DNA of 64,000 bases from Escherichia coli (GTDB lineage: Bacteria; Pseudomonadota; Gammaproteobacteria; Enterobacterales; Enterobacteriaceae): assembly GCF_003334785.1 (NCBI RefSeq), contig NZ_QOWV01000001.1. One strand, 5' to 3'. The notes beneath the pieces were generated by a model. The model was not told the origin of the DNA. It saw nothing but the letters and a program-made list of their open reading frames with translations, and made no database searches. Positions 2,231-11,021 of the stretch are shown here, piece by piece. The position numbers and the translations under genes were made by a program. Within the stretch, counting starts at the first letter, position 1; every line of letters starts with the position of its first letter.

Positions 2231-2657
2231 TCAAATTCTCCCGTCATTATCACCTCTGCTACTTAAATTTCCCGCTTTATAAGCCGATTAAATGATGAAT
2301 AAACGCCCCTGTTAATGAATATCTGGCATGTTGTACTAAAAATCGATGTTTTGCTTTGACAATCCCCTGGTGTTTTGCGAAAACATTCGAGGAAGAAAAA
2401 AAACAGTATTCTTATATGCGCATAACCATGCATGTAAATACCATGTTTACCGTGCTAGTGAAATCTACGTATGGCGTGGACAGACGCCATTCGTGATGTC
2501 GATAGCTGCCACAAGGCAACGGTCTTCTCACCGTAGACCCAGGCATTGCGCGCCGTGAATCTTCATGATTTCGGTCTATCGTGACGGGTAGCGACTCTGA
2601 ACAGTGATGTTTCAGGGTCAGACAGGAGTAGGGAAGGAATACAGAGAGACAATAATA

Positions 2658-3152
2658 ATGGTAGATAGCAAGAAGCGCCCTGGCAAAGATCTCGACCGTA
2701 TCGATCGTAACATTCTTAATGAGTTGCAAAAGGATGGGCGTATTTCTAACGTCGAGCTTTCTAAACGTGTGGGACTTTCCCCAACGCCGTGCCTTGAGCG
2801 TGTGCGTCGGCTGGAAAGACAAGGGTTTATTCAGGGCTATACGGCGCTGCTTAACCCCCATTATCTGGATGCATCACTTCTGGTATTCGTTGAGATTACT
2901 CTGAATCGTGGCGCACCGGATGTGTTTGAACAATTCAATACCGCTGTACAAAAACTTGAAGAAATTCAGGAGTGTCATTTAGTATCCGGTGATTTCGACT
3001 ACCTGTTGAAAACACGCGTGCCGGATATGTCAGCCTACCGTAAGTTGCTGGGGGAAACCCTGCTGCGTCTGCCTGGCGTCAATGACACACGGACATACGT
3101 TGTTATGGAAGAAGTCAAGCAGAGTAATCGTCTGGTTATTAAGACGCGCTAA
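2658..3152 (+). CDS. lrp: Leucine-responsive regulatory protein (AsnC/Lrp family)
   Basis: Track ORF 2604..3152 trimmed to ATG 2658 (MVDSKKRPGKDLDRIDRNILNELQKDGRISNVELSKRVGLSPTPCLERV...), 164 aa with N-terminal HTH. Divergent from trxB across a 544-bp intergenic region. Confidence 0.95.
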   Translation: MVDSKKRPGKDLDRIDRNILNELQKDGRISNVELSKRVGLSPTPCLERVRRLERQGFIQGYTALLNPHYLDASLLVFVEITLNRGAPDVFEQFNTAVQKLEEIQECHLVSGDFDYLLKTRVPDMSAYRKLLGETLLRLPGVNDTRTYVVMEEVKQSNRLVIKTR

Positions 3153-3286: not shown

Positions 3287-6200
3287 TTGAGCCAGGAATA
3301 CACTGAAGACAAAGAAGTCACATTGACAAAGTTAAGTAGCGGCCGCCGCCTTCTGGAGGCGTTGCTGATCCTTATTGTCCTGTTTGCCGTCTGGTTGATG
3401 GCTGCCTTACTAAGCTTTAACCCTTCGGACCCCAGCTGGTCGCAAACGGCCTGGCATGAACCTATCCATAATTTAGGTGGGATGCCCGGTGCGTGGTTGG
3501 CAGATACGCTGTTCTTTATTTTTGGCGTGATGGCTTACACCATTCCCGTCATTATTGTCGGCGGTTGTTGGTTTGCCTGGCGTCATCAGTCCAGCGACGA
3601 ATACATTGATTATTTTGCCGTTTCGCTACGCATCATTGGCGTTTTGGCGCTCATCCTTACCTCCTGTGGTCTGGCGGCAATCAACGCTGACGATATCTGG
3701 TATTTTGCCTCCGGTGGCGTCATTGGCAGCTTACTAAGCACTACGCTACAACCACTGCTACACAGTAGCGGGGGAACTATTGCGCTGCTCTGCGTTTGGG
3801 CAGCGGGCCTGACGTTGTTCACCGGTTGGTCATGGGTGACCATTGCTGAAAAACTCGGCGGCTGGATTTTAAACATTCTCACCTTCGCCAGTAATCGTAC
3901 CCGTCGCGATGATACCTGGGTCGATGAAGATGAGTATGAAGACGACGAAGAGTATGAAGATGAAAATCACGGCAAACAGCATGAATCACGCCGTGCCCGT
4001 ATTCTTCGCGGCGCGCTAGCGCGTCGTAAACGGTTGGCGGAAAAATTCATTAATCCGATGGGGCGGCAAACAGACGCTGCGTTGTTCTCCGGTAAGCGGA
4101 TGGATGATGACGAAGAGATTACCTACACTGCACGCGGTGTGGCTGCCGACCCGGACGACGTCCTATTTTCGGGCAATCGTGCAACGCAGCCAGAATATGA
4201 CGAATACGATCCATTATTAAACGGTGCGCCAATTACCGAACCTGTCGCTGTAGCAGCTGCTGCTACCACGGCGACACAAAGCTGGGCTGCGCCGGTTGAA
4301 CCTGTGACTCAGACGCCGCCTGTTGCCTCTGTTGATGTTCCACCTGCGCAACCTACAGTAGCCTGGCAGCCTGTACCGGGTCCACAAACGGGAGAGCCGG
4401 TTATTGCTCCTGCACCGGAAGGTTACCCACAGCAGTCACAATATGCGCAGCCTGCAGTGCAATATAATGAGCCGCTGCAACAACCAGTACAGCCGCAGCA
4501 GCCGTATTATGCACCTGCAGCTGAACAACCTGCGCAACAGCCGTATTATGCCCCTGCGCCAGAACAACCGGTGGCAGGTAACGCCTGGCAAGCCGAAGAG
4601 CAGCAATCCACTTTTGCTCCACAGTCTACATACCAGACTGAGCAAACTTATCAGCAGCCAGCCGCTCAGGAGCCGTTGTACCAACAGCCGCAACCCGTTG
4701 AACAGCAGCCTGTTGTGGAGCCTGAACCCGTTGTAGAAGAGACAAAACCCGCGCGTCCGCCGCTTTACTACTTTGAAGAAGTTGAAGAGAAGCGAGCCCG
4801 TGAACGTGAACAACTTGCGGCCTGGTATCAACCGATTCCAGAACCGGTTAAAGAACCAGAACCGATCAAATCTTCGCTGAAAGCACCTTCTGTTGCAGCA
4901 GTACCTCCAGTAGAAGCCGCTGCCGCTGTTTCCCCGCTGGCATCTGGCGTGAAAAAAGCGACACTGGCGACGGGGGCTGCCGCAACCGTTGCCGCGCCAG
5001 TCTTCAGTCTGGCAAATAGCGGTGGACCGCGTCCTCAGGTCAAAGAGGGGATTGGTCCGCAGTTGCCACGACCGAAACGTATCCGCGTGCCAACTCGTCG
5101 TGAACTGGCGTCTTACGGTATTAAGCTGCCCTCACAGCGTGCGGCGGAAGAAAAAGCCCGTGAAGCCCAGCGCAATCAGTACGATTCTGGCGATCAGTAC
5201 AACGATGATGAAATCGATGCGATGCAGCAGGATGAACTGGCACGTCAGTTCGCCCAGACACAGCAGCAACGCTATGGCGAACAGTATCAACATGATGTGC
5301 CCGTAAACGCAGAAGATGCAGATGCTGCGGCAGAGGCTGAACTGGCTCGTCAGTTTGCGCAAACTCAACAACAACGTTATTCCGGCGAACAACCGGCTGG
5401 GGCGAATCCGTTCTCGCTGGATGATTTTGAATTTTCGCCAATGAAAGCGTTGCTGGATGATGGTCCACACGAACCGTTGTTTACGCCAATTGTTGAACCT
5501 GTACAGCAGCCGCAACAACCGGTTGCACCGCAGCAGCAATATCAGCAGCCGCAACAACCAGTTCCGCCGCAGCCGCAGTATCAGCAGCCACAACAGCCGG
5601 TTGCGCCGCAGCCACAATATCAGCAGCCGCAACAACCGGTTGCGCCACAGCAGCAATATCAGCAGCCGCAACAACCGGTTGCGCCGCAGCAGCAGTATCA
5701 GCAGCCACAACAGCCAGTTGCGCCACAACCGCAGGATACCCTGCTTCATCCGCTGTTGATGCGTAATGGCGACAGCCGTCCGTTGCATAAACCGACGACG
5801 CCGCTGCCTTCTCTGGATTTGCTGACACCGCCGCCGAGCGAAGTGGAGCCGGTAGATACCTTTGCGCTTGAACAAATGGCTCGCCTGGTGGAAGCGCGTC
5901 TGGCTGATTTCCGTATTAAAGCCGATGTCGTCAATTACTCTCCGGGGCCGGTTATCACTCGCTTTGAATTGAACCTGGCACCGGGCGTAAAAGCGGCGCG
6001 CATTTCTAACTTGTCACGGGACCTTGCCCGTTCACTTTCGACGGTGGCGGTGCGTGTCGTTGAAGTTATTCCTGGCAAACCCTATGTAGGTCTGGAGTTA
6101 CCGAATAAAAAACGACAAACCGTTTATCTGCGCGAAGTTTTGGATAACGCCAAATTCCGCGATAATCCGTCGCCATTAACCGTGGTGCTGGGTAAAGATA

Positions 6201-7276
6201 TCGCCGGTGAGCCGGTGGTTGCCGATCTGGCGAAAATGCCGCACTTGTTGGTTGCGGGGACTACCGGTTCCGGTAAATCTGTCGGTGTGAACGCGATGAT
6301 CCTGAGCATGCTTTATAAAGCACAGCCAGAAGATGTGCGTTTCATCATGATCGACCCGAAAATGCTGGAGCTTTCGGTTTATGAAGGCATTCCGCATCTG
6401 TTAACGGAAGTCGTTACTGATATGAAAGATGCCGCCAACGCGCTGCGCTGGTGTGTTAACGAGATGGAGCGTCGGTATAAACTGATGTCTGCGCTGGGTG
6501 TGCGTAATCTGGCGGGTTATAACGAAAAAATTGCTGAAGCCGATCGCATGATGCGTCCGATTCCAGACCCGTACTGGAAGCCGGGTGACAGTATGGATGC
6601 CCAGCATCCGGTGCTGAAAAAAGAACCATACATTGTGGTGTTGGTTGACGAATTTGCCGACCTGATGATGACGGTAGGTAAAAAAGTGGAAGAGCTGATA
6701 GCACGTCTGGCGCAAAAAGCCCGTGCCGCGGGTATCCACCTCGTACTGGCAACTCAGCGTCCATCGGTTGATGTTATTACTGGTCTGATTAAAGCGAATA
6801 TTCCGACCCGTATCGCCTTTACCGTATCCAGTAAGATTGACTCACGTACCATTCTTGATCAGGCTGGCGCGGAATCACTGCTGGGTATGGGGGATATGCT
6901 CTACTCTGGGCCGAACTCCACGTTGCCGGTACGTGTCCATGGTGCTTTTGTTCGCGATCAGGAAGTTCATGCCGTGGTGCAGGACTGGAAAGCGCGTGGT
7001 CGCCCACAGTATGTTGATGGCATCACCTCCGACAGCGAAAGCGAAGGTGGTGCGGGTGGTTTCGATGGCGCTGAAGAACTGGATCCGTTGTTCGATCAGG
7101 CGGTGCAGTTTGTCACTGAAAAACGCAAAGCGTCAATTTCTGGCGTACAGCGTCAGTTCCGCATTGGTTATAACCGTGCAGCGCGTATTATCGAACAGAT
7201 GGAAGCGCAGGGGATTGTCAGCGAACAGGGGCACAACGGTAATCGTGAAGTGCTGGCCCCACCGCCGTTTGACTAA
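3287..7276 (+). CDS. ftsK: DNA translocase FtsK
   Basis: 1329-aa ORF with TTG start as in track. N-terminal TM segments, long P/Q-rich linker, C-terminal motor with Walker A GTTGSGKS, then gamma domain. Confidence 0.96.
4496..4573 (+). repeat. Two imperfect 39-bp tandem copies inside ftsK linker (QQPYYAPA-x-EQP)
   Basis: Direct repeat cagccgtattatgc(a/c)cctgc...gaacaacc(t/g) read from sequence, in frame within ftsK. Confidence 0.6.
5234..5380 (+). repeat. Duplicated 42-bp motif ([14 protein letters not shown]) inside ftsK linker, copies at 5234-5275 and 5339-5380
   Basis: Two 14-aa identical peptide motifs encoded with synonymous differences (gaactggcacgtcagttcgcccagacacagcagcaacgctat vs gaactggctcgtcagtttgcgcaaactcaacaacaacgttat). 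Confidence 0.7.
5504..5734 (+). repeat. Six tandem 39-bp coding repeats in ftsK linker ([10 protein letters not shown](Q/P)QY)
   Basis: cagcagccgcaacaaccggttgcgccgcagcagcaatat unit repeated 6 times with minor variation. Explains the low-complexity antisense track ORFs 5132..5875 and 5481..5828. Confidence 0.85.
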
Positions 7277-7322: not shown

Positions 7323-7434
7323 ACTCTATCAACTGAAAATTCAGTATTTTCTTCTTTCCTCAAGCTGATTATTAGCCTGGAATAGAGAGTAGAGGGAACT
7401 CCCGATCGGGAGTGACGTAATTTGAGGAATAATG

Positions 7435-8046
7435 ATGAAAAAAATTGCCATCACCTGTGCATTACTCTCAAGCTTAGTAGCAAGCAGCGTTTGGGCTGAT
7501 GCCGCAAGCGATCTGAAAAGCCGCCTGGATAAAGTCAGCAGCTTCCACGCCAGCTTCACACAAAAAGTGACTGACGGTAGCGGCGCGGCGGTGCAGGAAG
7601 GTCAGGGCGATCTGTGGGTGAAACGTCCAAACTTATTCAACTGGCATATGACACAACCTGATGAAAGCATTCTGGTTTCTGACGGTAAAACACTGTGGTT
7701 CTATAACCCGTTCGTTGAGCAAGCTACGGCAACCTGGCTGAAAGATGCCACCGGTAATACGCCGTTTATGCTGATTGCCCGCAACCAGTCCAGCGACTGG
7801 CAGCAGTACAATATCAAACAGAATGGCGATGACTTTGTCCTGACGCCGAAAGCCAGCAATGGCAATCTGAAGCAGTTCACCATTAACGTGGGACGTGATG
7901 GCACAATCCATCAGTTTAGCGCGGTGGAGCAGGACGATCAGCGCAGCAGTTATCAACTGAAATCCCAGCAAAATGGGGCTGTGGATGCAGCGAAATTTAC
8001 CTTCACCCCGCCGCAAGGCGTCACGGTAGATGATCAACGTAAGTAG
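7435..8046 (+). CDS. lolA: Periplasmic lipoprotein chaperone LolA
   Basis: 203 aa from second ATG ([21 protein letters not shown] signal peptide). Track ORF begins one codon earlier at 7432 (MMKK); either start is possible. Confidence 0.93.
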
Positions 8047-10783: not shown

Positions 10784-10803
10784 TACCCAATTTTTCTGAA
10801 TCT

Positions 10804-10830
10804 AAAAAGCGCCTGCGGGCGCTTTTTTTG
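10804..10830 (+). terminator. Intrinsic terminator of serS
   Basis: agcgcc-tgcg-ggcgct hairpin followed by TTTTTTT, 21 bp after the serS stop. Confidence 0.85.
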
Positions 10831-10837
10831 TCTCCCT

Positions 10838-10851
10838 TTGATACCGAACAA
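10838..10851 (+). promoter_or_regulatory. FNR box candidate for dmsA promoter
   Basis: TTGAT-accg-AACAA matches FNR consensus TTGAT-N4-ATCAA with one mismatch; dmsABC is an FNR-activated anaerobic operon. About 170 bp upstream of dmsA ATG, implying a long leader. Confidence 0.55.
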
Positions 10852-11021
10852 TAATTACTCCTCACTTACACGTAATACTACTTTCGAGTGAAAATCTACC
10901 TATCTCTTTGATTTTCAAATTATTCGATGTATACAAGCCTATATAGCGAACTGCTATAGAAATAATTACACAATACGGTTTGTTACTGGAATCAATCGTG
11001 AGCAAGCTTGAGTGAGCCATT

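Follow-up and report, generated by a model that had tools for sequence, protein, structure and literature searches.

The linker of the DNA translocase FtsK, as encoded in a stretch of 64,000 nucleotides of Escherichia coli DNA (RefSeq assembly GCF_003334785.1, contig NZ_QOWV01000001.1; referred to below as the window), is probably made of conserved docking blocks that are kept apart by two disordered spacer zones of variable length, and a 14-residue motif that occurs twice within it is probably a pair of helical short linear motifs. The gene is an open reading frame (ORF) of 3990 bp on the + strand (3287–7276), which starts with TTG, encodes a protein of 1329 residues and is ftsK of the E. coli K-12 type. 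Its linker carries three in-frame repeat families, namely (a), two units of 39 bp; (b), the duplicated 14-residue motif; and (c), six units of 39 bp directly before the motor domain. Motif (b) lies in a conserved central block, and families (a) and (c) fall in the two least conserved and gap-richest zones of the linker.

FtsK couples closure of the septum to the unlinking of chromosomes. Its linker is usually dismissed as unconserved low-complexity sequence, and the contribution of its ~650 residues has been poorly understood for decades. Begg 1995, Bigot 2004 and Dubarry 2010 are credited with describing the proline/glutamine (P/Q)-rich linker domain, FtsKL, and the last two reportedly mapped its function. 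The gene and region considered here are the same, but within Enterobacterales the linker appears to resolve into conserved blocks, including helices of the form ELARQFA...RY, and two hypervariable repeat zones. The view of the linker as unconserved is a fair one across all bacteria; judging from the alignments described below, it does not hold within Enterobacterales.

In the literature the E. coli linker is given as ~650 aa long, proline/glutamine-rich, unstructured, variable in length between species and required for full chromosome-dimer resolution (PMC5357621), and reviews state that parts of it interact with FtsZ, FtsQ, FtsL and FtsI (PMC5357621, PMC7794046). Previous work has established the gene, the P/Q-rich unstructured linker and its variable length across species, and has documented a repeat indel in Salmonella. 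We found no description of the conserved-block architecture or of the ELARQFA...RY pair in the accessible literature, and do not claim novelty for either. Neither the string ELARQFA nor a description of the motif was found in the searchable literature, which does not reach Dubarry 2010 and Bigot 2004, and the only work on FtsK linker motifs or AlphaFold models found there concerns an N-terminal contact between FtsK and FtsQ.

The duplicated motif and the central block

The two copies of motif (b) lie on the + strand at 5234–5275 (aa 650–663) and 5339–5380 (aa 685–698). The K-12 copies encode an identical peptide and differ by 8 nucleotides, all at synonymous third positions, which gives differences at 8/9 synonymous sites (pS) and 0/33 non-synonymous sites (pN). 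When we scanned species-representative genomes, 80 Enterobacteriaceae loci were returned, and two copies are found in all of these species (80/80), 30–42 residues apart. Across 81 genomes six positions are invariant in both copies (L2, A3, Q5, F6, R13 and Y14) and variation is concentrated at positions 8, 9, 11 and 12. Comparison of orthologous copies gives a pS of 0.63–0.68 versus a pN of 0.06–0.14, copy 2 being the more conserved (pN 0.06), and the invariant residues are each encoded by 2–5 synonymous codons across species. The spacer between the copies is variable (identity 0.34 over aa 670–679), and the motif is an island of purifying selection flanked by variable, disordered sequence, as looked for in a short linear motif. 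Since synonymous sites are saturated while the peptide has been held, and since all 80 species have two copies, selection on motif (b) evidently acts on the peptide, and the duplication predates the family Enterobacteriaceae.

More diverged forms (L-x-x-Q-F-x-x-Q-Q-x-x-R-Y-G) are seen outside this family, with two copies in Proteus, Xenorhabdus and Pantoea and a single copy in the sequences read from Providencia, Erwinia and Arsenophonus. When 1.84 billion representatives were searched exhaustively with HMMER, the only relatives of the block around the motif were FtsK-like proteins. A preliminary description of this DNA, made from its letters, had proposed that the duplicated motif is old and possibly functional. 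Its age is borne out by the contrast between synonymous and non-synonymous sites in K-12, by the presence of both copies in 80 species and by the diverged forms in other families of Enterobacterales. The suggestion of a function gains from the constrained peptide with its six invariant positions, and was if anything understated, the motif being part of a conserved, helix-forming central block.

The data do not support recent gene conversion between the copies: nucleotide identity is 0.785 within genomes versus 0.760 between genomes, and synonymous sites are saturated in K-12. There is a tendency for the two copies to agree at positions 8–9 within a genus (QT/QT for E. coli, AT/AT for K. pneumoniae, and further QS/SS for Citrobacter and Salmonella-like genomes and AQ/AT for Enterobacter). 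Either co-variation with a partner or occasional conversion could lie behind this; the sequences at nucleotide level give no sign of a recent event.

We modelled the block of aa 580–734 (74 sequences) and the whole linker (an alignment of 63 sequences) with AlphaFold2. The most confident parts of the linker are two predicted helices that contain the motif copies. Helix 1 (5195–5275, + strand) covers aa 637–663 in the block model (H58–84) and aa 640–663 in the linker model (H442–465), and helix 2 (5309–5380, + strand) covers aa 675–698 (H96–119 in the block model, H478–501 in the linker model). Their predicted local distance difference test (pLDDT) values are 79–88 for helix 1 (linker-model residues 441–460) and 76–78 for helix 2, within 75–88 for both overall. 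Each helix (24–27 residues) has an acidic N-terminal half followed by the motif, with the motif's RY as its last two residues. No tertiary fold is predicted (predicted template modelling score, pTM, 0.19–0.22), and a profile search of the PDB gave no solved structure related to the block, the best match (E = 0.11) being noise. The variable positions 8, 9, 11 and 12 cluster on one helical face, with a variability moment of 0.58 at 100 degrees versus 0.04 at 160–180 degrees; with a permutation p of 0.085 this is suggestive only.

The central block that holds motif (b) spans 4742–5503 (+ strand, aa 486–739). Among the sampled E. coli proteins, 13 have the exact anchor string, and in all of these the stretch from TKPARPP to GPHEPL is 246 aa long. 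For a profile of conservation, 61 complete FtsK proteins were aligned to that of K-12 and scored in 10-residue windows. Islands with a window identity of 0.7–1.0 cover most of aa 200–330 and, in the central block, aa 490–519, 580–625, 640–665 and 680–735.

Some of these islands lie outside the motif. The one at 4754–4843 (aa 490–519) is 95–97% identical across 61 Enterobacteriaceae FtsK proteins and has a predicted helix at aa 494–513. Another, at 5036–5146 (aa 584–620), holds a long invariant run that includes P-T-R-R-E-L and G-x-K-x-P-S-Q-R, is retained in both distant sequences aligned (Pantoea and Xenorhabdus) and is the most conserved part of the linker; no description of a function for it was found in the accessible literature. 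Following copy 2 of the motif, an acidic-aromatic island at 5408–5491 (aa 708–735) is also conserved, with F, S, P and K residues that are invariant or nearly so, and may loosely resemble acidic-aromatic docking tails such as the C-terminus of SSB.

Repeat arrays in two variable zones

Family (a) lies at 4496–4573 (+ strand, aa 404–429) in the first variable zone, and consists of 2 × 39 bp encoding QQPYYAPA(A/P)EQP(A/V). Its two units (4496–4534 and 4535–4573) differ at 7 nucleotides, and Tandem Repeats Finder (TRF) reports them with a period of 39, 1.9 copies and a score of 117, a result with which a separate repeat search concurs. Family (c), 6 × 39 bp encoding QQPQQPV(A/P)PQ(Q/P)Q(Y/D), lies at 5504–5737 (+ strand, aa 740–817) in the second variable zone. 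TRF finds it with a period of 39, 5.7 copies, 88% matches and a score of 344, as well as a 117-bp super-period at 94%. Its two 117-bp blocks of three units are identical at 106 of 117 nucleotides, and the super-period in K-12 is apparently the trace of a recent three-unit duplication.

The preliminary description had placed three in-frame repeat families in the FtsK linker, and (a), both copies of (b) and six 39-bp units of (c) beginning at 5504 lie where it put them. Its end of array (c) at 5734 moves to 5737, since the last unit has GAT (D), rather than TAT (Y), as its 13th codon. The three families had also been described as distinct. All three are present, but (a) and (c) may share an ancestry, because a lone degenerate (c)-like 13-residue unit at 4467–4507 (+ strand; 71–83% identity to in-register (c) units in the repeat search) sits immediately before family (a), and because both families are built of P/Q/Y-rich 13-residue units that begin with QQP.

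The linker as a whole is strongly biased in composition, with 15% Q, 14% P and 13% A over aa 180–817 (42% together). No Pfam family matches aa 180–820, and the sole family match of linker segments is to NCBIfam PRK10263 (‘DNA translocase FtsK’), which is a model of the whole protein. The conservation profile shows two low, gap-rich zones, at aa ~340–485 (identity 0.14–0.63, and 0.14–0.42 from aa 380) and aa 740–817 (0.41–0.54). When compared with 61 other species, family (a) has an identity of 0.23–0.42 with gaps of 0.08–0.39, and for the two arrays together across 62 sequences the corresponding figures are 0.2–0.5 and 0.2–0.7. Both are coil in the AlphaFold2 model of the linker, with pLDDT of 34–37 over (a) and 38–43 over (c). 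The arrays show the features looked for in a low-complexity spacer, that is biased composition, no domain match, low-confidence structure, poor conservation and length polymorphism by whole units.

This polymorphism was read from 17 complete E. coli ftsK genes, 16 fetched from across the hit ranking together with that of the window, which are 3873–4158 bp long (1290–1385 aa). They carry 2, 3 or 4 units of family (a), with a partial unit in one allele, and 3–8 units of family (c), and several strains (CFT073, SFAD3 and BCE049) have an extra five-residue partial (c) unit, QQPQY. Indels in the arrays measure 39, 78 or 117 bp, or are partial units of 15/24 bp, and the reading frame is intact in all 17 E. 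coli alleles and in 62 species genes. A phase-variable contingency locus with on/off switching is ruled out, as every indel keeps the frame and the units are of 39 bp. In strain RCAD0514 the first 2.6 kb of ftsK match K-12 without a single substitution, and a clean deletion has removed precisely 117 bp, or 3 units, from array (c), so that this event appears to be recent. Compared with K-12, the gene of CUWW10 has one more (a) unit and that of O157:H7 one more (c) unit, and these too are apparently recent whole-unit events. On a larger scale, a 480-bp query across array (c) is colinear over at least 80% of its length in 2352 of 5426 complete genomes, with at least 99% identity in 1473, and its alignment breaks at the array in the others, although these figures are an indirect BLAST count and not a census.

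That tandem coding repeats vary in copy number between strains, as the preliminary description had anticipated, is thus confirmed, and an invariant repeat number is contradicted by the 17 genomes. Its attribution of the variation to slippage is supported by the in-frame whole-unit indels and the clean deletion in RCAD0514. From the whole-unit indels and the near-identity of the units, we infer that 39-bp units are gained and lost in frame by replication slippage or by unequal recombination between near-identical units.

The arrays are also of an already known kind, that of variable P/Q-rich linkers, a point that the preliminary description had understated. A related case is the in-frame ftsK indel of 84 bp (2 of 9 repeats, P757–Q784) reported for two isolates of Salmonella Enteritidis (PMC6137255). 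It corresponds to array (c), and is the same in-frame gain or loss of whole units between close strains. That report concerns another species and a single strain pair, whereas the present data give the range in E. coli (3–8 units of (c) and 2–4 of (a)) and a comparison of 62 species. Swapping the ftsK alleles in Salmonella left survival in egg white unchanged, the only assay reported (PMC6137255). Copy-number variation of this kind is ordinary, and its practical value is that the length of ftsK is not a stable character and that array indels should not be over-interpreted in comparative genomics.

When TRF was applied to the genes of the 62 species, in-frame arrays were found almost only in the same two zones, but with lineage-specific units (13, 14, 15, 17 and 24 aa among them). 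Escherichia, Salmonella and Citrobacter have 13-residue units (×2–8), and Klebsiella and Raoultella have 20-, 24- or longer-residue units of a YQPE type (about ×2–7) in the upstream zone, with 14-residue units in Kosakonia, 15-residue units in Superficieibacter and 17-residue units in Cedecea. TRF detected no array in about half of the Enterobacter genes and in several other genera, and Enterobacter linkers are ~100 aa shorter. Units are P/Q/A-rich in all genera, and nearly all of them contain 1–2 Tyr. Because of the low conservation, the gaps, the low pLDDT and the occurrence of lineage-specific units in the same zones, (a) and (c) would be fillings of two disordered tether zones, that is their present contents in K-12, rich in P, Q and A, with periodic Tyr and free of fixed structure.

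Several smaller observations concern repeats elsewhere in the linker. Strain MB07011 has an extra tandem copy of a 17-residue segment (window 4652–4702, aa 456–472) that is single-copy in K-12, which would be a fourth, nascent repeat in the first variable zone. A short acidic in-frame repeat with periods of 18 bp and 9 bp lies at 3923–3960 (aa 213–225), where other genera have forms of their own (DEEYE, DEGEYED and others, ×2–3). Homologues retrieved with the 145-aa block were nearly all short fragments from the ends of contigs. Many ‘partial FtsK’ proteins begin or end inside the linker, many of them on contigs of at most 2.5 kb, and entries of ~580–670 aa from Providencia, Pantoea and Xenorhabdus are also marked partial; the linker arrays would thus seem to be a common breaking point in short-read assemblies.

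Readings of the linker architecture

In the arrangement that we consider probable, the membrane domain and a proximal conserved region would be followed by a first tether containing (a), the central block with its several helices, a second tether containing (c) and the motor. The central block would thus be tied by one spacer to the membrane-proximal part and by the other to the DNA motor. Spacer lengths would drift between strains, and the zones would be rebuilt from different units in different genera. Motif (b) would stem from an ancient duplication of a segment of ~25–35 residues, each copy now a predicted acidic-then-amphipathic helix ending in ELARQFAxxQQxRY-G, which selection on the protein would have kept across Enterobacterales. 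In division or chromosome segregation the pair would engage a partner in the cytoplasm, or two of its protomers, and docking sites for such a putative partner are the most likely role of the helices as modelled.

Both parts of this arrangement have known counterparts. The P/Q domain of ZipA, the C-terminal linker of FtsZ and the proline-rich spacer of TonB are disordered, length-variable, low-complexity tethers running from a membrane anchor to a functional domain. As in the FtsK spacers, their sequence is poorly conserved and their composition kept; the FtsK spacers differ in having recent tandem units and copy-number polymorphism within a species, and in flanking an internal conserved block. 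Helical short linear motifs in disordered regions (molecular recognition features, MoRFs) include the C-terminal peptide of FtsZ, which binds FtsA, ZipA and others. Like these, motif (b) is a short conserved island within disorder for which a helix is predicted in isolation, and it shows an invariant pattern of L, F and Y plus R. Unlike the FtsZ peptide it is internal, is present in two copies ~35 residues apart, has a partner that is only putative, and is seen only in Enterobacterales.

The helices might instead act within FtsK itself, forming an antiparallel hairpin or coiled coil, contacting the linker of a neighbouring subunit to aid hexamer assembly, or docking onto the motor domain to regulate it. 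The constant company of the two copies, their constrained spacing of 30–42 residues in Enterobacteriaceae, the similar lengths and amphipathic character of the helices, and the matching at positions 8–9 within genera, which fits co-evolving surfaces, would all agree with this. We nevertheless consider it unlikely, as AlphaFold2 gives no confident tertiary packing (pTM 0.19–0.22), FtsK of Erwinia and Arsenophonus appears to retain one copy only, and the variable-length array (c) between the helices and the motor disfavours a fixed intramolecular dock. Selection on the DNA or RNA, through a binding site, an internal promoter or an antisense transcript or ORF, could in principle also conserve motif (b), and long ORFs are present on the opposite strand at 5121–5468, 5132–5875 and 5481–5828. 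This carries almost no weight against differences at 8/9 synonymous sites between the copies, an orthologue pS of 0.63–0.68 versus a pN of 0.06–0.14, the use of 2–5 synonymous codons for each invariant residue, and the failure to see a conserved nucleotide pattern independent of the + strand frame; together, synonymous saturation, an invariant peptide and no Rfam match in ftsK effectively refute a nucleotide-level cause. The antisense ORFs themselves (115, 247 and 115 aa; minus strand, 5121–5875), which cover motif (b) and array (c), were rejected as genes, being L/R/W-rich by-products of the CAG/CCG-rich repeats.

For the arrays, a different possibility is that their periodic tyrosines work as ‘stickers’, through which FtsK would self-associate weakly and multivalently and so, for example, cluster or condense at the septum, with copy number tuning the valency. 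Unit length and sequence differ by genus, and yet nearly all units keep 1–2 Tyr in a P/Q/A-rich context, which suggests selection on composition rather than purely neutral slippage, and the arrays are predicted to be disordered. The argument is one from composition, however, and many Enterobacter species have no detectable array in their shorter linkers, the natural range in E. coli is as wide as 3–8 units, and exchanging the Salmonella alleles left egg-white survival unaffected, so that we regard this as quite improbable.

Several points also weigh against docking blocks on spacers. The reading is computational and the partner of motif (b) is putative; conservation of a helical face is only suggestive by the permutation test; and the confidence of the predicted helices is moderate (75–88), from alignments of 63–74 closely related sequences. 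If a published deletion covers aa 640–700, a role for this segment may already have been established or dismissed. For copy number, the basis is 17 fully read genes and the indirect BLAST colinearity count, and, with the only array-length allele swap on record (Salmonella) showing no phenotype, length may be neutral within its natural range.

Setting aside the two hypervariable zones exposes a central block of fixed length with a strictly conserved helix pair. With eight residues to mutate or to probe in binding screens, the pair is a small and well-defined target, by which the linker's role in the ‘checkpoint’ between division and segregation could become directly testable. We would further suggest, though tentatively and with some doubt, that the ELARQFAxxQQxRY helices and the other islands of the central block make up an unrecognised docking module of FtsK held between two adjustable tethers, whose putative partner would be a cytoplasmic division factor or one that organises the chromosome terminus. 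Such a module, if real, would explain in physical terms the part that the linker has long been noted to play in cell division and in linking septation with chromosome segregation.

The ftsK locus and other matches in the window

Assignment of the gene is straightforward. The annotated RefSeq start of the coding sequence in the fetched loci maps to 3287, and the translation shows a Walker A motif (GTTGSGKS) and a hydrophobic N-terminus. The region 4400–5800 is 100% identical to many RefSeq E. coli chromosomes annotated ‘DNA translocase FtsK’, and used as a query it matches all 5426 complete E. coli genomes. Upstream lies lrp (2604–3152) and downstream lolA (7432–8046), followed by rarA; the order lrp–ftsK–lolA was found in every fetched locus and is matched by the window, so that both identity and neighbourhood mark the gene as an FtsK/SpoIIIE orthologue.

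Elsewhere in the window, and unrelated to the ftsK repeats, Rfam gives gathering-level matches to two small RNAs: STnc130 at 10797–10931 on the minus strand (140 bits) and ES036/CssrF at 54458–54500 on the + strand (53 bits).

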